DNA of 58,269 nucleotides. Origin: Candidatus Falkowbacteria bacterium RIFOXYA2_FULL_38_12. Its GTDB lineage: Bacteria; Patescibacteriota; Patescibacteriia; XYB2-FULL-38-15. Made by a program: the position numbers and the translations under genes. Below the pieces are notes generated by a model. The model worked only from the letters and a program-made list of their open reading frames with translations. It did not search any database and was not told the origin of the DNA. Position 1 is the first letter of the stretch. Every line of letters starts with the position of its first letter. The stretch lies in NCBI GenBank assembly GCA_001778095.1, contig MFGA01000002.1, positions 48,827 to 107,095 on the forward strand, given 5' to 3'. Positions 10,556-48,911 of the stretch are shown in pieces.

Positions 10556-13132
10556 TTATTTTCTTGTAAAACCTAACAAATAAAATCTGTCGGAGTTCAA
10601 TTCGCTCCCAGCTGTTGCAAAAGACGAGCCAAATTTCATATCTTTACCATAATACCACTTTGCTTCAAGATTATTTCCAAAATTAATTTTATCAGTAAAA
10701 TTTATTTTTGTTCCGGGTTGCTTTTGGATAAGAATTTGATAAAAACTTTTTTCTTTATCTTTGGAAAATGCCGCACGAATACCACCTAGCCAATCTTTTT
10801 CTTCTTCCGAGTAAGAAAATTTAAAAGGTAAAATATATTCTAGAACAATCGTCGCCGTATCTCCCGGATCAACCTGAACCCAATTTCCAAAAACGGTTTT
10901 ACCAAATTCTCTGCTTATTCTTGTGCCGGTCGTCTCGTCCACAAAGACTTGACTCTCTGAATTTTTTAAATCGGGATCAACAATATAATTATCACCTGGT
11001 TTTTCAAATAATTCAGTGGGTGGCGCTTCAAAACCTTCGGCGTTTAGCAAGGTACTTCCTTGCGGAACATAAACTCGCAAATAATCAACATTTCTCATTC
11101 CGGTAAATGTTTGCCATTTTTCTCCGGAATGCGCCCTTTTAATAGTTAATCTATTTTTAATATATCCATCCTCGGCAATCGTTGTCTCAAGGGAAACATC
11201 TTCTTTAATAACTTGATCTGTCTTTCCTCCGCCCAAATTGGAATGGACAATCATTAAATAATCGGTTTTCTCGTTGACTGATTTTACTTTTCCGCCCCAA
11301 TCAAGATTTAAGATTTCATGCTCTATTTCCGGAAAAACTGAATACAAAATAATATTTCTCTCGCCCAAACCTTTTGCGAAAATTGACAATATTTTTCCAA
11401 ACTCGCGCGGACTACTTTTGAAAATTTTATCAAGCAAAAGCGGAGCCATATCCCCAATAATTTGTTTTGGCTTATTTTCTTTTTTATTATATTCAATCTC
11501 CACTGATTTTTGAATTTCCTCTACAAAGTTGTTCGCGTCAATTATTTTATTGTACTTAGAAAGTGTAATCGGCCCGGCTACTTCCAAAAGATCAACAATC
11601 AAATCTGAATTAATGGCAACAACGCCATCAATCGTCGGCCCACCACCCTTTTCATAAAACCATTTTATTTTTTCGGCGGATGTTGGAAAATCCGGAAACC
11701 AATTCGCGTCTTGAAGTTCCCAACGCGGATTTATAAGAGTAAGCGGTTCCGGAGCAACAACTTTTTCTTTTAAAGATCCCTTAAAATCATACGGCCCGCC
11801 ACCCGGAACTTCTATTTTTGTAATTTGCCCTTCATTAAAATCAACCAAGGCCAGACTCCCCATAAAACCGCCGGTCGGCCTTAGTTCTCCTGTATTTTGA
11901 AAAACAAATAAATATCTTTTTGACGCCTCATCTCCCAAAAATTTTATCATCAAATCGGAAATTGAAATTAATTTTTTAAAACTCCCGACAAGATTCGGCA
12001 ATTTCTCTTGAAGTTTTATAAAAGTCTCTTGCTTGTCTTCGGGAATCGCTTCACTATCCACCAAAGCCAGTCTGTCTCTGGCCGCCGCAATATCGGGAAG
12101 CATTTCGGATAACTGATCTCTTAATATTTTTACCTTTGGCGTTAGTCTTCCGTCACTCTCATTTTTAGTAAAAGCCGCCAAACTGTCCAATAAATTTCTT
12201 CCCACCAAGGAAAGTTTCTCTCCGGCAAAGAATAAAGCATCGCCCGCTTCCAACTTATCTCCTTGTGGCAAGGCTTTGGCTATTCCGGCAACAATAAAAT
12301 TTATTTTGTTAAGTTCGCGCTGGGCCGCTCCGAACGCTCCGGCCGCTTCCTCTAAATTATTTGCCGCTCCGGAAAAATCAGAATTGGCGATCTGTCCGCC
12401 ACCCTCAACCAAGCTGGCATAAGCGTCGTTTGCTCCATCTAAAACTTTATTTTCCGCCTTTTTTAGCGTTCCGTAATAAGAAAAAGCTTGAAGAGGCAAA
12501 ATTAAAACAAAAGCAACGAGACCAAAACTGACAACTTTTTTGCAATCGGCAAAAGATAGTTTTAAAAACTTAAAATTATTTTCAAATTTGCTGATGTTTT
12601 CTTTAAAAGCCGGCGGGATTATGTTGATTTTGGAAAAAAATTCTTTTGGGGATTTAAAAATAAAAGTTGAAATTGATTTCAATTTAGTCCAAATCTTCTT
12701 GGATTCGCCAGTTGTAAAATAAAAAACTCCTTGCGGCGCCTTAACGCAAAATTCCTTTGTCTTTTTTAAAAAATTAAAATCAATCGTCTTCTTTTCTTGC
12801 TTCTTTATTTCTTTTTTCGCAATCAACGTTTTTTCTTTTACTTCCTGTGGTTCGCCGGAGCTTAGAGCGTAGGCGACTTTTTCCTTCTTTATCGGCTCAA
12901 TCTTTTTTACCTCTTTCCTTTTTTCCGCGACAATTTTTCGCAAATCTAAAATATGCAAGGACGGTTCTGTCCTAAAAATTCTTTCGCTCCTCGCCTCCCT
13001 CTCCTCTTCTTTCTTTTCCTTCTCCATCTCTTGTAACACCACCAAAGATGGATCAACTATTTCCTCCTTCACTTTCTTTTTTGCTTTTGACGCGGGGTTC
13101 TCCTCAATTTTCTCTTCTTTTTTTCTCCTCAT
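10556..13132 (-). CDS. DUF4012 domain-containing envelope protein
   Basis: 858 aa, with a Lys/Glu-rich N-terminus and a TM segment. The block LFVFQNTGELRPTGGFMGSLALVDF is the hallmark I recall for DUF4012, a family that usually sits next to glycosyltransferases. Confidence 0.75.
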   Translation of the reverse strand: MRRKKEEKIEENPASKAKKKVKEEIVDPSLVVLQEMEKEKKEEEREARSERIFRTEPSLHILDLRKIVAEKRKEVKKIEPIKKEKVAYALSSGEPQEVKEKTLIAKKEIKKQEKKTIDFNFLKKTKEFCVKAPQGVFYFTTGESKKIWTKLKSISTFIFKSPKEFFSKINIIPPAFKENISKFENNFKFLKLSFADCKKVVSFGLVAFVLILPLQAFSYYGTLKKAENKVLDGANDAYASLVEGGGQIANSDFSGAANNLEEAAGAFGAAQRELNKINFIVAGIAKALPQGDKLEAGDALFFAGEKLSLVGRNLLDSLAAFTKNESDGRLTPKVKILRDQLSEMLPDIAAARDRLALVDSEAIPEDKQETFIKLQEKLPNLVGSFKKLISISDLMIKFLGDEASKRYLFVFQNTGELRPTGGFMGSLALVDFNEGQITKIEVPGGGPYDFKGSLKEKVVAPEPLTLINPRWELQDANWFPDFPTSAEKIKWFYEKGGGPTIDGVVAINSDLIVDLLEVAGPITLSKYNKIIDANNFVEEIQKSVEIEYNKKENKPKQIIGDMAPLLLDKIFKSSPREFGKILSIFAKGLGERNIILYSVFPEIEHEILNLDWGGKVKSVNEKTDYLMIVHSNLGGGKTDQVIKEDVSLETTIAEDGYIKNRLTIKRAHSGEKWQTFTGMRNVDYLRVYVPQGSTLLNAEGFEAPPTELFEKPGDNYIVDPDLKNSESQVFVDETTGTRISREFGKTVFGNWVQVDPGDTATIVLEYILPFKFSYSEEEKDWLGGIRAAFSKDKEKSFYQILIQKQPGTKINFTDKINFGNNLEAKWYYGKDMKFGSSFATAGSELNSDRFYLLGFTRK

Positions 13133-14237
13133 TTTTGTATATTTCTAAAGTTTTTTTCGCGAGCGATTCCCAGCTGTATTTTTTAATCTGTAGAAATCCT
13201 TTTTCGGATAATCTCTTCCTTAGTTCTTCGTCAAAATAAATAAGCTTTATCTTCTTTATTATATCATCTTTATCGCGAGGATTAAAGTATATTGCCGCAT
13301 CTTCGTAAATTTCCTCTAAACAAGAGGAATTTGAGGCGAGAACGGGCAAGCCGTAATTCATTGCTTCGAGCCCCGGAAGGCCAAATCCTTCAATAAACGA
13401 GGGAAAAACATAAAGACGCGCCCCGCGATAGAGATCGGCTAAAACTGCTTCATTTACAAAATTAGTGAAAATAATCTTCTCTTTCTCATTCTCGTGGACC
13501 ATTTCTTTCAGTCTTTTGTAAAAATAATCTTCCTTACCCACAAAAACCAATTGGCAGCCAATAGCTAAATCCCGATAAACCTCAATTAATGTCTCCAAGT
13601 TCTTATGCGGATAAGCATTACCAACATAGAGAATAAAAGGTTTGGTGATGCCGAGCTTTGCCAAACTTTCTTTTTCCGGAATTTTTAATTGCCCATACTC
13701 CACCCCGTCGCAAGCCTCGTAGGCGACCTCAATTTTATCTTCTTTGATTTTAAAATATTTTATTATTTCTTTTTTTGTGTATTCCGAAACCGTTAAAACT
13801 TTTTTGGCGCGCCACACGGCAAACCAAATGACAAATTTATAGACCAAATATTTTATCTTATAAAAAATGGGGCTTAATGTCGTCGCCCGCGGAGTCGGAA
13901 ATTGCAGAAGAATCAAGTCGTGAATTGTGGCAACAAATTTTATTGGACAAAAAATGGGAATATTAAAATGCGGGAAGTGCATCAAGTCAACTTTTTCCTT
14001 CCAGATCGCCAGAGGCATCATAATCTGCTCTTTAAAACTGTACCACTTGCAATCTGCTAAAACTTTTTTGAAATTAGAAAATTTGGGAGTATAATAATCC
14101 CAATTTTCTCTACGCAAAAAAATGATGTACTCATTTTCTCGATCTATCTTTTCTAGGTTCTCTACGAGCCGCTCAACATACCTCCCCAAACCCTTGCTTA
14201 CCGGCCCGAGAAACCTTGCATCTATGCCGATTTTCAT
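13104..14237 (-). CDS. Glycosyltransferase family 4
   Basis: MKIGIDARFL N-terminus and a C-terminal EGFGLPGLEAMNYGLPVLAS motif (GT-B, GT4). Confidence 0.85.
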   Translation of the reverse strand: MKIGIDARFLGPVSKGLGRYVERLVENLEKIDRENEYIIFLRRENWDYYTPKFSNFKKVLADCKWYSFKEQIMMPLAIWKEKVDLMHFPHFNIPIFCPIKFVATIHDLILLQFPTPRATTLSPIFYKIKYLVYKFVIWFAVWRAKKVLTVSEYTKKEIIKYFKIKEDKIEVAYEACDGVEYGQLKIPEKESLAKLGITKPFILYVGNAYPHKNLETLIEVYRDLAIGCQLVFVGKEDYFYKRLKEMVHENEKEKIIFTNFVNEAVLADLYRGARLYVFPSFIEGFGLPGLEAMNYGLPVLASNSSCLEEIYEDAAIYFNPRDKDDIIKKIKLIYFDEELRKRLSEKGFLQIKKYSWESLAKKTLEIYKNEEKKRREN

Positions 14238-14293: not shown

Positions 14294-14390
14294 GTGCTTG
14301 TGGGCGTAAGCCCCGTTCGGCTAATCCTTACGGACCATAAGCCGAAAAACAGGCACAATAAAAATACTCTCCGACTCGAGAGTATTTTTA
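14294..14390 (+). ncRNA. Candidate stand-alone structured small RNA (unknown family), including its terminator hairpin
   Basis: Closing stem gtgcttgt (14294-14301) / acaggcac (14349-14356). GNRA hairpin gggc-gtaa-gccc (14302-14313). Stem ttcggct (14316-14322) / agccgaa (14340-14346). An alternative pseudoknot pairing is cgtaag (14305-14310) / cttacg (14327-14332). The terminator is atactctc-cgactc-gagagtat plus a T-run (14361-14389). Confidence 0.4.
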
Positions 14391-14391
14391 T

Positions 14392-14880
14392 TTATTCATC
14401 TTCAATTTTTTTTGATCCAATCACTCGCTTATTGCTACTTAACGTCCAAAATGGCATCACGCTCCAAAAATGAAATTTGCCACTCCCCTCACCTATTCGC
14501 CTCACCACAACATTGATACGGATACATTTTACGAAGCTGATAATCGCGAAGAAACCAAACCATTCAATTATTTTTGTTTTGTGAAATCCATTTTTATCAC
14601 AATCGCCTACGGCGCAAATAGAGCGCCTATATTCTTGGATAGTTGTTGTTTTCTTTAAAATTTCTACCGCTTTATCAAAATAGATAAACTTATTTTTCTG
14701 TACTTGTTTACTTCTTTCACTGCGATGACAATCATATCTCAGATGATGAAAACCGTCGGAATTGAAAACGATATCATCTTTTAACGCTGGGCAATAAATA
14801 CTGCCAATTCTTTCGTAAGTTGTTTTGGCAATCTCTTTTAATTTATAAAATTGCTCTAATTCTGCTTTATTTATTTCCAT
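14392..14880 (-). CDS. Hypothetical protein (162 aa), last gene of the SIR2-like/NUDIX operon
   Basis: Intact ORF starting 11 nt after the NUDIX stop and followed by the bidirectional terminator. I recognise no family. Conserved-looking His/Arg/Glu positions (DGFHHLRY...HRSERSK) exist, but no assignment is made. Confidence 0.7.
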   Translation of the reverse strand: MEINKAELEQFYKLKEIAKTTYERIGSIYCPALKDDIVFNSDGFHHLRYDCHRSERSKQVQKNKFIYFDKAVEILKKTTTIQEYRRSICAVGDCDKNGFHKTKIIEWFGFFAIISFVKCIRINVVVRRIGEGSGKFHFWSVMPFWTLSSNKRVIGSKKIEDE

Positions 14881-14891
14881 ACACTTTCTCG

Positions 14892-15302
14892 TTAAGCGAT
14901 ATAGCCCATCTCTTTAAATAACTTGATGGACGGCCTATTGAGTTCAATTTCAGAAAGTTTTTCCTTGGGTATCCACACAAGTTTTTCAATATCATCACTG
15001 GCTTTAACTTCTCCAAAAATATATTTGGTGAGAAAAACCAAAAAAATATAGTGGGTAATTTCGCCATGTTTATTGGGTTCGTAGTCTTCGCTAAACCCCA
15101 GCGACTTTTTTATCTCCACTTCAATGCCGGCCTCTTCTTTAATCTCACGTCGAATAGCATCGCTTAATGATTCGTTATCATTAACACCGCCGCCGATCAA
15201 GTGCCAAGTGTTTGGATAGGGGCCAACGTTCGCTTTCTTTTTTCCAAAAAGCAAATCTCCGTCTTTTTCAATTACCGCACTGACGATAACTCGTGTTTTC
15301 AT
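14892..15302 (-). CDS. NUDIX hydrolase
   Basis: Nudix box GGGVNDNESLSDAIRREIKEEAGIE (GX5EX7REUXEEXGU). Confidence 0.85.
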   Translation of the reverse strand: MKTRVIVSAVIEKDGDLLFGKKKANVGPYPNTWHLIGGGVNDNESLSDAIRREIKEEAGIEVEIKKSLGFSEDYEPNKHGEITHYIFLVFLTKYIFGEVKASDDIEKLVWIPKEKLSEIELNRPSIKLFKEMGYIA

Positions 15303-15319
15303 AAAAAAATGTTATTTTT

Positions 15320-16363
15320 TTAATAGCTTAAACTACGCCAAAAATCTTTGAAAAAGGTACTACATGATGAGTCAGAAATTCTAATGATGGGAGAAGATGA
15401 ACCATATAAATCTCTAATCTGTTCTCTAATAATATCTTTATCGCTTGGAGAAGTTTTAAATGCAGTAGCAAAACACTCCGTTACCTTGTTTCTTCCGTCT
15501 AAACTTGGTTTTATTAATTTCATATTTAATTTATGAAAAGCAAATCCCATAAAAATTAATTTATCCGCCGCTCTCACTTGTTCGCGAATCTTCAAAATCT
15601 TACTTAAAGTTGGGTCAGTACCTTCGGTGAAAGTTTTAATTTTATTTGCAAGATTTAGCAATTGCAATGGATTTGGATCTAACCCAAAATCTATTTCCAT
15701 TTCTCCGCCTATGCCCCAGGGCAATGTACCAACATCGCCATACGGATGATATATATTAAAAGCCTTCATTAATTCGGCAGCTTCATTTTGCTGGAGTCTG
15801 TAATAATTCTGTATTGCATAATAAAGAAAATACTCTACACATCGATCGTAGTTAAAAATTATTAAAGTTACCGATTTAAATCTTTCTTTTAGGCTATCCT
15901 TGATACAATTTTCTGTAAGCAACTGAAAAAAAGGGATATACCAAGTCTCTGAAAGGTCAGAAAAACTCATCATCTGACCGTCCTTTCTAAAATACAATAA
16001 GCTCTGTCCCTCAGCTTCTAAAATTGCTCTGATTATTGCTAGTTTCCCGCATAAATTAATTTTTTCATTATTCCTTTGATTATCAAGAAAATTATCTATA
16101 GAAATTGCCTGTGGTAAAGCATCTCTTATATGCCAAGACTCACGAAGATACGGATTGATATCTTTACTAGCCGTTTCTGACTGTTGAACGTAAAGGCGAA
16201 AAGCTTCCATTATTTTACGATCACCACTGACAAGTTCATCTTCAAAATCTTTAAAGCGTATATCAAGTAAACTTGATATTTTTTTCTTTAATTCCTGACC
16301 AGTTGGCAAATTAGCCTCTTTGCTTGCTCCAGCTCCAATAATAAATACTATACTACTATTCAT
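15320..16363 (-). CDS. SIR2-like (SIR2_2-type) domain protein
   Basis: The start is moved to the ATG at 16363 (MNSSIVFIIGAGASKEANLPTGQEL), because the longer ORF overlaps the upstream GT4 gene. It has a GAGxS Rossmann motif, IIFNYDRCVEYF (TxNYD-like), IYHPYGDVG (candidate catalytic His) and FMGFAFH. These resemble SIR2_2 family patterns from memory. Confidence 0.6.
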   Translation of the reverse strand: MNSSIVFIIGAGASKEANLPTGQELKKKISSLLDIRFKDFEDELVSGDRKIMEAFRLYVQQSETASKDINPYLRESWHIRDALPQAISIDNFLDNQRNNEKINLCGKLAIIRAILEAEGQSLLYFRKDGQMMSFSDLSETWYIPFFQLLTENCIKDSLKERFKSVTLIIFNYDRCVEYFLYYAIQNYYRLQQNEAAELMKAFNIYHPYGDVGTLPWGIGGEMEIDFGLDPNPLQLLNLANKIKTFTEGTDPTLSKILKIREQVRAADKLIFMGFAFHKLNMKLIKPSLDGRNKVTECFATAFKTSPSDKDIIREQIRDLYGSSSPIIRISDSSCSTFFKDFWRSLSY

Positions 16364-16380
16364 ATCAAATCTATTATTTA

Positions 16381-17556
16381 TTATGAAAAATACCCAAACA
16401 ATCCCACAACCTCCCTCGCGCACTTCTCCCAAGTAAACTCTGCCACTTGTTTTTTCCCCTTTTCCCTCATTCTCTCGCGCAAATTATTGTCCGTCAAACA
16501 TTGATAAATGGCCTCGGCTGCTTCTTTAGGGTTGTTGGGGTCAACCATTACGGCGGCATTGCCTATAACCTCCGGGATTGCCGAGACTGAGGAAATAATG
16601 ACCGGCGTCCCCGAAGCCGCGGCCTCAAGAGGAGGAAAACCAAAGCCTTCGTAAAAAGAGATATAAACAAAAACTTTGGCTAATTGATAAAAATAAAATT
16701 TATCTTTTTCGCTAACGTAATTTATAAAACGAATCTCGCGCCCGTATGGGCTTTTTTCCGCCCTCTCTAATATTTTTTTATAAAGCCATCCATATGGTCC
16801 GACTACTACAAGATGATAATTTTTGACCATCTCCCCTTTTTCGCTTTTCAATATCTCAAAAGCCCTAACCAGCCCCTCAATATTTTTTCTCGGCTCAATC
16901 GTCCCCACAAATAATATAAATTTATCCGGCAGGTTATATTTTTTTCTCAATTCTTCTTTTTCAAAATGATTCTTCGCAATTTCCGCTTCCTGAATCGCGC
17001 CGGAATAAATTACTTTTATCTTTTTTTCCTCTGCATTATACAAATCCATTAAATCTTTTTTTGTATTTTCCGAAATAGCAATAATTTTATCGCAATTTTT
17101 TATCAGTTTTTTGGGATTGATGAAAAAATGCCATAGGCGCCTCTTTAAAGAAAAAAAATAGGGAAATCTTTCAAAAGATAAGTCGTGAACGGTGATAACT
17201 TTTTTTATCCCGGGCGAGAGGGCAATAAAATTTATATTGGGGAGAAAAAATAAATCCAGATTTTCGTTTTTCCCTGCTTTTTCCATCAATAACTTATCTA
17301 CTTTCGGCCAATTGAAAAATCTTAAGCTGAAATTAAAAAGCTTATTCGGATAGTGAAAACCTGCCAAATGGATATTGGCTATTTTTTTCCATTCCTCGGG
17401 GATAAATTTATCAGCATCTTTAAAGGAATTATAAAAAAGAAAATAATTGTTTTCTTTATCTATACTAAAAATGGCGTCTAAGAGTCTAAAAGCATACTCT
17501 CCGACGCCACTTCTTTTTTCTTCTAAAAGTGATCTTATGTCAATACCGATATTCAT
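16381..17556 (-). CDS. Glycosyltransferase family 4
   Basis: The start is moved to MNIGIDIRSLL (17556), because the longer ORF runs through the repeat element. The C-terminal EGFGFPPLEAAASGTPVI motif is present. Confidence 0.85.
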   Translation of the reverse strand: MNIGIDIRSLLEEKRSGVGEYAFRLLDAIFSIDKENNYFLFYNSFKDADKFIPEEWKKIANIHLAGFHYPNKLFNFSLRFFNWPKVDKLLMEKAGKNENLDLFFLPNINFIALSPGIKKVITVHDLSFERFPYFFSLKRRLWHFFINPKKLIKNCDKIIAISENTKKDLMDLYNAEEKKIKVIYSGAIQEAEIAKNHFEKEELRKKYNLPDKFILFVGTIEPRKNIEGLVRAFEILKSEKGEMVKNYHLVVVGPYGWLYKKILERAEKSPYGREIRFINYVSEKDKFYFYQLAKVFVYISFYEGFGFPPLEAAASGTPVIISSVSAIPEVIGNAAVMVDPNNPKEAAEAIYQCLTDNNLRERMREKGKKQVAEFTWEKCAREVVGLFGYFS

Positions 17557-20170: not shown

Positions 20171-20230
20171 ATTTTAAATAAAAGGTTACCCTCTTTTACG
20201 AGGGGAATTTTTATTAGGTTTTTATTCAAC

Positions 20231-20672
20231 TAGCTATAAGCCGGATTCTGTATGGCATATAAATATGCCACGGCAGCCATCTATCTAGGATCCAAATTGC
20301 TCTGGACCTCAAGCGGTCGAAACTGACCTTGCACCGGATAGGTGTTTTCCACGACGCCTGTCACCAGGCTGTCCCGCGTGAGCTCTTACCTCACGATTTC
20401 AACCTTACCCCACTTCGCTAAAGCTTCACGGGGCAAGCCCCCGCGAATAAGGCGAAATATTCATCCCTTAAAGATTGAGGTGGTGTATTTTCTGTTGCAC
20501 TCTCCGTGGGCTTCAATACTTTTCTTTTTGCTACTTCTCCGCTTTTAACGAAAAAATAACATAAATAGAATACCTTATTCCCCGTCGCTGTTAGCGACTA
20601 TCTCTGAAGCGAAAAATACGCTTCGGTGTCCGGACTTTCCTCCCCACCCCCTTCAGGGGAGCAGGGTAGCTA
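20231..20672 (-). ncRNA. rnpB: RNase P RNA (bacterial type A)
   Basis: The minus-sense sequence contains GGGGAGGAAAGTCCGGACACC, GTGAGGTAAGAGCTCAC and ACAGAATCCGGCTTAT, which match universally conserved RNase P RNA blocks. The ends are approximate (P1 tagcta/tagcta). It carries an AT-rich internal extension. Confidence 0.85.
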
Positions 20673-20691
20673 CCCGCTAATCAAATAAACC

Positions 20692-41705: not shown

Positions 41706-41781
41706 GGGCCTGTAGCTCATCGGTCAGAGCAATTGCCTTATAAGCAATGGGTAGATGGTTCGATTCCATCCAGGCCCACCA
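41706..41781 (+). tRNA. tRNA-Ile (anticodon UAU), CCA encoded
   Basis: Acceptor GGGCCTG/CAGGCCC, anticodon stem-loop attgc-CTTATAA-gcaat, T-arm gatggTTCGATTccatc. Confidence 0.85.
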
Positions 41782-45151: not shown

Positions 45152-45261
45152 GGTGCTGGCGATGACCTACTTTCCCATTAAAGTATCATCGGCGCTGACT
45201 GGTTTTACTTCTGAGTTCGGGATGGGATCAGGTAGTTCCCAGCCGCCAGAATCACCAGCAC
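45152..45261 (-). rRNA. rrf: 5S ribosomal RNA
   Basis: The minus sense contains ...CCTGATCCCATCCCGAACTCAGAAGT...GGGAAAGTAGGTCATCGCCAGC. Helix I is gctggtgat/atcgccagc. It is flanked by a processing stem gtgaaacaca (45141-45150) / tgtgtttcac (45264-45273). Confidence 0.9.
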
Positions 45262-45348
45262 TCTGTGTTTCACTGAGGTTGTCTCCACCACGGACAAGTT
45301 CCGTGGTGGTTTTTTATCAATATAAAAGATTATTTTAACAATTCTTGT

Positions 45349-48604
<3,256 letters not shown>

Positions 48605-48911
48605 ACAAGAATTATTAAAATATAATTCTTGATTCTATGCTTATTATTTATCTTGGTGTACAAGATGCTCTTTTCTAAGTTGTTAATGAACAATTTATTT
48701 TTTGATACTCGCCTCTCTTTTCCCAAAAGAGGCGGGAGCAAAAAATAATTTTATTTTTTCACAAGGAACTTCACGATTTCAATATTATTAAAAAAACCGC
48801 TCTTCTAAAGCGGCTCAAAAATCATTAGCAAAGGTTTAGCCACTCTTGAATTTAAGTCTCAACATTTTTTGTAACATATCCCCCTTAAAAATAAATAATC
48901 TTCACTGCTAT

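Follow-up and report, generated by a model that had tools for sequence, protein, structure and literature searches.

The closest described counterparts of the SIR2-like protein considered here are the SIR2_2 (SIRim) domains of ThsA, DSR2, SIR2-HerA, SPARSA (SIR2-APAZ) and KomC, together with vertebrate FAM118B. What it has in common with them is a SIR2 Rossmann fold that lacks a zinc module, a GAGxS loop, and two invariant residues, the Asn of its FNYD motif and the His of its HPYG motif, placed where the NADases have their catalytic pair. ThsA, Avs5 and FAM118B, whose size or organisation is similar to that of the protein described below, are SIR2_2 proteins switched on by filament assembly (PMC12700824). 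In the Kongming system (KomA-KomB-KomC), KomB is a nucleoside triphosphate (NTP) pyrophosphatase in complex with KomC (PMC13454610). We analysed a locus of Candidatus Falkowbacteria bacterium RIFOXYA2_FULL_38_12, within a 58,269-nt stretch of contig MFGA01000002.1 (the window), in which genes for a SIR2-like protein of 347 amino acids (aa), a NUDIX hydrolase of 136 aa and a third protein of 162 aa follow one another on the minus strand. A preliminary description had suggested that this trio could form one NAD/ADP-ribose-centred module. Our analysis indicates that it probably consists of accessory genes with independent distributions that lie side by side in this lineage only, and not of a dedicated three-component system. 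Judged by its sequence and modelled fold, the SIR2-like protein belongs to an uncharacterised family of the known SIR2_2 NADase-type class, and it is encoded beside an ordinary NUDIX protein and an orphan resembling a solo LPD3 domain.

The SIR2-like protein shares the features listed above with the SIR2_2/SIRim group and, like FAM118B, consists of a SIR2 domain only (347 aa versus 351 aa). In contrast to the group, however, its sequence similarity to the known members is below detection, it has no SLOG, Macro or large sensor domain, and four of its cysteines (C105, C153, C175 and C334) have no assignable counterpart. No ThsB, HerA, pAgo or KomA/B partner is encoded in the window, and no partner of any kind is conserved in 80 genomes. 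In Thoeris the SIR2 domain of ThsA is fused to a SLOG or Macro domain that binds a signal, and the TIR protein ThsB is encoded next to it, whereas here all 347 aa are SIR2 domain and no TIR gene is present in the neighbourhood within the window. The locus resembles Kongming in that a small SIR2-only protein adjoins a nucleotide pyrophosphatase-type protein, with KomC as the best structural match. It differs from Kongming in that KomB is HAM1/ITPase-like while the protein here is a NUDIX enzyme, there is no KomA adenosine deaminase, no Kongming-type system is matched in PADLOC, and the adjacency is conserved nowhere else. Unlike DSR1/DSR2, SIR2-HerA, SPARSA and Avs5, the protein lacks a large C-terminal sensor, and no HerA, pAgo or STAND partner is found in the window or recurs in the 80 genomes.

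Distribution and base composition of the three genes

Co-occurrence was tested by tblastn with the three window proteins at loci outside the window's own strain, taking ~6 kb around each SIR2-like gene. The 93 SIR2-like loci comprised 80 genome loci, those of the three closest relatives, two plasmid loci and eight viral loci. The 162-aa family was represented by 64 metagenome loci plus the locus of a 74%-identical relative, the tblastn count covering 66 loci. For the NUDIX protein, the five closest relatives with usable contigs were looked up, one of them by gene table only. Synteny of the three genes in other genomes and independent occurrence of the NUDIX gene, two points that the preliminary description had itself named as decisive, served as the co-occurrence tests. 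Not one of the 93 SIR2-like loci contained a homologue of the NUDIX gene, and none contained one of the 162-aa gene. No SIR2-like gene was found at the 66 loci of the 162-aa family, and two of these loci had a weak NUDIX-like open reading frame (ORF; 32-33% identity), in different positions and in neither case adjoining upstream of the 162-aa gene as in the window. The complete trio was seen only on contigs of the same strain. The NUDIX gene, which had been described as part of the trio, occurs independently, at 60-86% identity and in other neighbourhoods, across Patescibacteria and DPANN archaea. Since the genes do not co-occur outside the strain and the NUDIX gene is found on its own, the proposal of a three-gene system fails both tests.

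The three genes also differ in base composition. At third codon positions the GC content (GC3) is lowest in the SIR2-like gene (0.253), followed by the 162-aa gene (0.307) and the NUDIX gene (0.401), with flanking genes at 0.34-0.42. The value of the SIR2-like gene is therefore atypically low, while that of the NUDIX gene is host-like. Phyletic ranges differ as well: relatives of the SIR2-like protein are found in many phyla, those of the NUDIX protein in the candidate phyla radiation and DPANN archaea, and the named relatives of the 162-aa protein in Patescibacteria/Parcubacteria, the others being unclassified. Separate histories of the three genes would agree with the differences in GC3. A search for flanking repeats as insertion scars found none that was convincing.

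Properties of the three proteins

A model of the SIR2-like protein was built with AlphaFold2 (AF2) from 20 family members, with a predicted local distance difference test score (pLDDT) of 86 and a predicted template modelling score (pTM) of 0.86. When the model was compared with the PDB using Foldseek, all 11 matches at E<=1e-3 were SIR2-domain proteins (probability 1.00, TM only 0.36-0.52), with KomC the best, accompanied by SPARSA SIR2, FAM118B, SIR2-HerA and DSR2. ThsA was the next match (E 3.6e-3), and canonical archaeal Sir2 was reached only from rank 41 (E ~1e-2). The motifs on which the preliminary description had relied are present and conserved, namely GAGAS at aa 10-14, FNYD at 170-173 and HPYG at 206-209. 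In an alignment of 75 sequences (39-100% identity), N171, D173, C175, H206 and G209 are 100% invariant. The SIR2 identity given earlier is thus borne out by the structure model that had been proposed as its check, and the catalytic pair Asn171/His206 is present and invariant. Inspection of the sequence found no CxxC pair, so that the canonical zinc-binding CxxC...CxxC module of sirtuins is lacking.

Curated models contributed little to the assignment. There was no Pfam match at E<=1, none in PHROGs and only a chance-level match in NCBIfam, and phmmer and profile searches of the PDB gave nothing useful. The PADLOC check called for in the preliminary description was positive for the N-terminal loop, with matches that span only the N-terminal 35 residues around GAGxS (Aga_SIR2, 2.6e-6), and negative for any Kongming-type system. 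A homologue on a Rhizobium plasmid (30% identity, BLASTP 6e-50) is annotated 'SIR2 family protein' and scores 29.1 bits on PF13289 SIR2_2 (cut-off 24.5); three other relatives score 20-24 bits, under that cut-off. On these sequence and model comparisons, we assign the 347-aa protein as a divergent member of the SIR2_2 (SIRim-type) group with an intact Asn/His pair, its Pfam membership being transitive only. The four dispersed cysteines are each kept in 70-75 of the 75 members. None lies in a CxxC pair; C175 adjoins the catalytic FNYD and is invariant in 75/75. These cysteines could form a metal or redox site.

The SIR2-like family is large, with at least 2297 clusters at 90% identity. The best 120 of the 2297 are all ~333-370 aa in length, at 53-61% identity. 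Named members come from Thermodesulfobacteriota, Methylobacter, Planctomycetes, Spongiibacter and one Nitrososphaeraceae archaeon, and a relative is encoded in 348 species-representative genomes. The distribution is patchy across many phyla at unusually high identity. When all neighbour ORFs were clustered, no neighbour family occurred in more than five of the 80 genome loci, and the 138 immediate neighbours fell into 119 Pfam families, with ThsB_TIR accounting for only two of the 138. Some neighbours match PADLOC models (DinG, HsdS, type IV restriction enzymes, mad3/5, PDC-S05 and PDC-S15), a tally made without a background comparison. A link of the family to tRNA-adjacent islands was considered and rejected: a tRNA is present in 10 of 60 13-kb loci, about the number given by a rough estimate of chance.

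Relatives of the SIR2-like gene are also carried by mobile elements. On Rhizobium and Agrobacterium plasmids they lie within accessory regions, in one locus with HipA/HTH, Ku and IS66 genes and in the other with Fic and restriction endonuclease genes. Eight IMG/VR contigs encode a relative, and on the five examined it is near a transposase, head protease, major head protein, terminase, portal, DNA polymerase or tape-measure gene. In some phage loci the distance to the terminase and portal genes is 1-4 kb. In a locus with a Mu-type transposase, one relative (L171:5995-7062) precedes the gene for a head maturation protease by 272 nt, and another (L173:5992-7092) lies ~1.2 kb upstream of large terminase and portal genes; these two relatives are at 37-43% identity. 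The family is phage-borne as well as chromosomal. The three closest relatives (59-61% identity) have contexts unlike the window and lack the NUDIX and 162-aa genes, and two of them are situated among glycosyltransferase or dTDP-sugar genes. A general tie to glycan loci was nevertheless rejected, as GT4, GT2, RmlD or FdtA-like neighbours were found in 0/80 genome loci. Beside the 59%-identical relative there is a pair of genes for a MazG-like protein and an SLFN-g3-type helicase (L154:6087-9015), and the same type of helicase is encoded near an 86%-identical NUDIX relative (P0244 contig). Possibly the pair is a conflict module of two genes in its own right, recurring in these genomes.

The comparisons of sequence, modelled fold and gene neighbourhood place the SIR2-like gene in the SIR2_2 (SIRim) branch and show it to be self-contained and to move horizontally, always without a conserved partner. 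The protein would cleave NAD+ or transfer ADP-ribose as a conflict or abortive-infection effector. Control of this activity would reside in the polypeptide itself or depend on self-assembly, as it does in ThsA, Avs5 and FAM118B, and by this analogy filament assembly appears the most plausible control for a bare SIR2 domain. If proteins of this kind are NADases, the question they raise is how a bare SIR2 domain is held off and then switched on.

The NUDIX protein was correctly described from the outset as canonical. It matches Pfam PF00293 (2.7e-16, 60.3 bits versus a 21.1-bit cut-off), and its Nudix box, GGVNDNESLSDAIRREIKEEAGI, fits the consensus GX5EX7REUXEEXGU. Like E. coli NudI, NudG and MutT it is a minimal single-domain NUDIX protein of ~135 aa. 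The best NCBIfam match is NudI, with 69.1 bits against an equivalog cut-off of 95 bits, and the protein differs from NudI further in belonging to a subfamily specific to Patescibacteria and DPANN archaea. The nearest solved structures are NudI (6dt3, 4e-14), the CTP pyrophosphohydrolase NudG and MutT-like proteins. In contrast, the NCBIfam models for ADP-ribose diphosphatase and NAD+ diphosphatase give only 16.6 bits (cut-off 248) and 18.4 bits (cut-off 158), and that for GDP-mannose mannosyl hydrolase a weak match (2.8e-6, 27 bits versus a 146-bit cut-off). A connection to NAD or ADP-ribose, as first suggested, is not supported by similarity because the protein resembles the NTP pyrophosphatases NudI, NudG and MutT. 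We infer that it acts as a nucleotide house-cleaning pyrophosphatase. It also matches PDC-S07, a single-gene NUDIX candidate in PADLOC, over its full length (1.9e-16, 58 bits); this match carries no specific signal because its score is about that of the generic Pfam NUDIX model.

Relatives of the NUDIX protein number 258, the best 120 of which are 136-aa proteins at 55-100% identity. Their hosts include Magasanikbacteria, Falkowbacteria, Gracilibacteria, Dojkabacteria, Levybacteria and DPANN archaea. At 83-86% identity, the genes have contexts that differ from the window and lack the other two genes: they lie between histidine phosphatase and EamA transporter genes near type I restriction-modification, Fic and KilA-N genes, or with integrase and Fic genes, or near a SLFN-type helicase gene. 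None of the five closest relatives looked up is in a glycan locus. The order histidine phosphatase, NUDIX, EamA transporter, not necessarily contiguous, is common to two genomes (L157-L159 and the P0244 contig, 83-86% identity). The NUDIX gene may originally have occupied this slot, the copy in the window having since moved.

The 162-aa protein, which could not be assigned initially, has no direct match in Pfam, NCBIfam, PADLOC or PHROGs. Its AF2 model (pLDDT 82.5) combines a long antiparallel sheet with a helical hairpin and a helix at the N terminus. A fold search of the PDB gave no significant match; the best match in BFVD was a domain in a 1054-aa Ralstonia phage protein (E 4.6e-3, marginal). 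There are 171 close homologues, and every named one is from Patescibacteria/Parcubacteria or an unclassified 'bacterium'. A profile search of 1.84 billion cluster representatives recovered 1026 relatives, almost all of which have a single domain and a length of 140-165 aa, and H46 and R56 are invariant throughout this superfamily. PF18798, LPD3, was matched at E<=0.01 by 31 of 119 scanned representatives (best 2.3e-8), and no other Pfam family was matched more than once. LPD3 is a large polyvalent protein-associated domain of phages and conjugative elements; the functions of such domains are unknown and solo forms have been reported (Iyer, Burroughs, Anand, de Souza, Aravind 2017, PMC5512222). 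The resemblance to LPD3 lies in its being the only recurring Pfam family and in the origin of the viral fold match inside a large phage protein; unlike LPD3 proper, the window protein lacks a direct model match and its subfamily is always solo, at ~160 aa. On sequence grounds we assign it as a solo LPD3-like domain protein, linked transitively through its relatives.

Searches of phage and plasmid collections by tblastn with the 162-aa protein and with one LPD3-matching relative found nothing, as did a scan of IMG/VR with the 162-aa protein. Close to the gene of the 74%-identical relative is one for an MmeI-like restriction-modification enzyme; the SIR2-like and NUDIX genes are absent there. 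Clustering of neighbour ORFs gave no family present in more than six of 56 loci. A distant superfamily member of 388 aa from a metagenome (P0455) carries a sugar-nucleotidyltransferase domain (NTP_transferase, 1.8e-14) fused at its N terminus, the only clear fusion among the 150 superfamily matches listed.

Explanations for the arrangement

We consider it probable that three unrelated accessory genes have come to lie side by side within a surface-polysaccharide locus, as the last genes (3' end) of a transcription unit for glycosyltransferases. Since the gaps are only 17, 17 and 11 nt, the trio is probably co-transcribed with the upstream GT4 genes, the transcript ending at a strong terminator. 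Shared expression would then reflect where the genes landed rather than a common mechanism. Several observations weigh against this explanation. The very tight packing and the shared terminator have the look of a functional operon, and the layout of the trio is kept on all nine same-strain contigs, which come from several samples. All three families have a flavour of biological conflict. KomC, the top structural match, works with an NTP-pyrophosphatase partner, and a close SIR2-like relative (L154) is near a MazG-like pyrophosphatase. Insertion of the trio is deduced from composition and distribution: when all the collected loci were searched for an empty site with the GT4, WbaP, DUF4012 and 650-aa proteins of the window, only DUF4012 matched, at two loci cut at the contig end. 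Synteny alone also leaves room for a recently assembled functional partnership.

Such a partnership would be a three-component defence module in which the SIR2-like protein is the NAD+-depleting effector, the NUDIX protein either senses or degrades a nucleotide signal (as KomB does for KomC) or removes ADP-ribose and blocks the rebuilding of NAD+ by the phage, and the LPD3-like protein is a sensor or regulator. The stable, tightly spaced layout with its shared terminator, the KomC match and the MazG-like gene, two genes away from the 59%-identical relative, all speak for it, as does the full-length match to PDC-S07. We nevertheless consider it unlikely. Co-occurrence is absent from the 93, 66 and ~10 loci of the three families, and the SIR2-like family keeps 40-60% identity and its invariant catalytic residues without a conserved partner. 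The parallel with Kongming is weakened by the HAM1-like fold of KomB and the absence of a KomA-like deaminase, and the other enzymatic role by a NUDIX protein that is NudI/MutT-like and not ADPRase-like. The PDC-S07 score is at the generic NUDIX level, and the GC3 of the NUDIX gene is host-like, unlike that of the SIR2-like gene. A more specific version, which we regard as quite unlikely, is that a partner-less SIR2-only NADase has newly been coupled to the NTP-pyrophosphatase-type NUDIX protein and the solo LPD3-like protein as a nucleotide-gated NAD+-depletion module. It would operate either by Kongming-like binding or degradation of an alarm nucleotide or by destruction of ADP-ribose that blocks NAD+ reconstitution by the phage. 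In its weaker form the 347-aa family alone would be a new SIR2 immune module in which one protein is both sensor and effector, and which phages carry as well.

The genes might instead serve the polysaccharide locus or metabolism, the NUDIX protein as a sugar-nucleotide hydrolase and the SIR2-like protein as an NAD-dependent regulator or modifier of envelope synthesis. A NUDIX enzyme of this type, Gmm/WcaH, belongs to colanic-acid clusters, and the NUDIX protein here does have the weak match to GDP-mannose mannosyl hydrolase. The trio is embedded among, and apparently co-transcribed with, GT4 genes, and glycosyltransferase or dTDP-sugar genes accompany two of the three closest SIR2-like relatives. 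However, the 80 genome loci lack such neighbours, the closest NUDIX relatives are outside glycan loci, and the SIR2-like family is also found inside phage genomes. In addition, the fold matches of the SIR2-like protein are led by anti-phage and FAM118 SIR2 proteins, with canonical Sir2 far down the list, and the CxxC zinc module is absent. A role in glycan synthesis is therefore improbable. We give still less credence to the view that the SIR2-like gene was left behind by a mobile element or is its cargo, as a phage 'moron' or counter-defence gene, and is catalytically silent or irrelevant in its host. Its low GC3, the relatives on eight IMG/VR contigs, among phage genes where examined, and the adjoining gene of an LPD3-like family typical for phage and plasmid polyvalent proteins (PMC5512222) would fit such an origin. 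Yet the ORF is intact and of full length with all family-invariant residues, every same-strain contig, from several samples, retains it, and no integrase, phage structural gene or flanking repeat adjoins it.

If true, a defence system composed of SIR2, NUDIX and an unknown protein would be a notable addition to NAD-centred immunity; the evidence is that this is not a conserved system, and the findings on the trio leave current models unchanged. What the juxtaposition of independent genes brings to light is a large unannotated family of partner-less, SIR2-only proteins of ~347 aa, without coverage in Pfam, NCBIfam or PADLOC and present in many phyla, plasmids and phages. The 162-aa orphan of the candidate phyla radiation is now tied, through a transitive link, to LPD3, a domain found in polyvalent proteins of phages and plasmids. 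The locus would also illustrate how small accessory or conflict genes accumulate in a variable surface-glycan locus of an ultra-small genome.

Layout of the locus and other features of the window

The window has a GC content of ~39% and a gene content typical of a genome of Patescibacteria (candidate phyla radiation). Positions of the features are collected in Table 1. Read from the sequence, gaps of 17 nt separate the stop codon of the upstream GT4 gene from the SIR2-like ATG and the SIR2-like stop codon from the NUDIX ATG, and 11 nt lie between the NUDIX stop codon and the ATG of the 162-aa ORF. The three tightly spaced minus-strand genes, with gaps of 17 and 11 nt, are thus exactly as described before. 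A longer SIR2-like ORF with a TTG start reaches 16432 and overlaps the GT4 gene. It was rejected as unsupported because all homologues are ~347 aa and begin at the MNSS... position. Pfam tags, which fell on identical contigs, confirmed the previously reported location inside a polysaccharide locus with a Bac_transf/CoA_binding_3 (WbaP-like) gene, three GT4 genes and DUF4012.

Table 1. Positions in the window of the trio and of other features. For the three genes of the trio the higher coordinate is the ATG and the lower the stop codon; the lower coordinate of the upstream GT4 gene is its stop codon.
Feature	Position	Strand	Remarks
SIR2-like protein, 347 aa	15320-16363	minus	Stand-alone SIR2_2-type (SIRim-like), predicted NAD+-consuming enzyme
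NUDIX hydrolase, 136 aa	14892-15302	minus	Minimal, predicted NudI/MutT-like (d)NTP pyrophosphohydrolase type
162-aa protein	14392-14880	minus	Patescibacteria subfamily of a wider LPD3-like single-domain superfamily
Bidirectional intrinsic-terminator-like hairpin	14357-14392		Closes the trio
Upstream GT4 glycosyltransferase	16381-17556	minus	Pfam Glyco_transf_4 and Glycos_transf_1
Downstream GT4 glycosyltransferase	13104-14237	minus	Pfam Glyco_transf_4 and Glycos_transf_1
GC-rich multi-stem element	14295-14357	minus	In the 154-nt spacer, directly after the terminator
RNase P RNA, class A	20221-20685	minus	174 bits; 465 nt versus 367-nt model
tRNA-Ile, anticodon TAT	41706-41781	plus	ARAGORN
5S rRNA	45154-45259	minus	After 23S rRNA
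23S rRNA	45345-48606	minus	3262 nt versus 2925-nt Rfam model

The terminator has a perfect 15-bp stem and a 6-nt loop and is bordered by an A-run and, on the opposite side, a T-run. Its minimum free energy is -21.9 kcal/mol (z = -5.45), and 0/200 shuffled sequences fold as well. The stop codon of the 162-aa gene runs into the inverted repeat. The bidirectional terminator assigned to the trio by the preliminary description therefore stands, but a separate upstream boundary does not, as no terminator-like site is predicted between the upstream GT4 gene and the SIR2-like gene. Because the trio begins 17 nt after the GT4 stop codon with no terminator between, it looks like the tail of a WbaP-GT4-GT4 transcription unit and not like an operon transcribed from a promoter of its own.

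The trio and the downstream GT4 gene are separated by an intergenic spacer of 154 nt, which contains the GC-rich multi-stem element. A 123-nt fold of this element has a free energy of -30.8 kcal/mol (z -2.6), and it is present in a single copy in the window. It has no Rfam match, and an Rfam scan of the intergenic region that follows the trio gave only sub-threshold, terminator-like noise. The WbaP-like gene at the head of the glycan operon is preceded by the RNase P RNA gene, which lies ~50 nt upstream.

The length of the 23S rRNA gene relative to the Rfam model implies ~340 nt of insertions. A match to small-subunit rRNA was reported in no part of the window, and the segment at 49-50.5 kb is taken up by protein-size ORFs; the 16S gene appears to be unlinked from the 23S-5S pair. 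The tRNA-Ile gene with anticodon TAT is of a type uncommon in bacteria, in which AUA is usually decoded by a lysidine-modified CAT tRNA.

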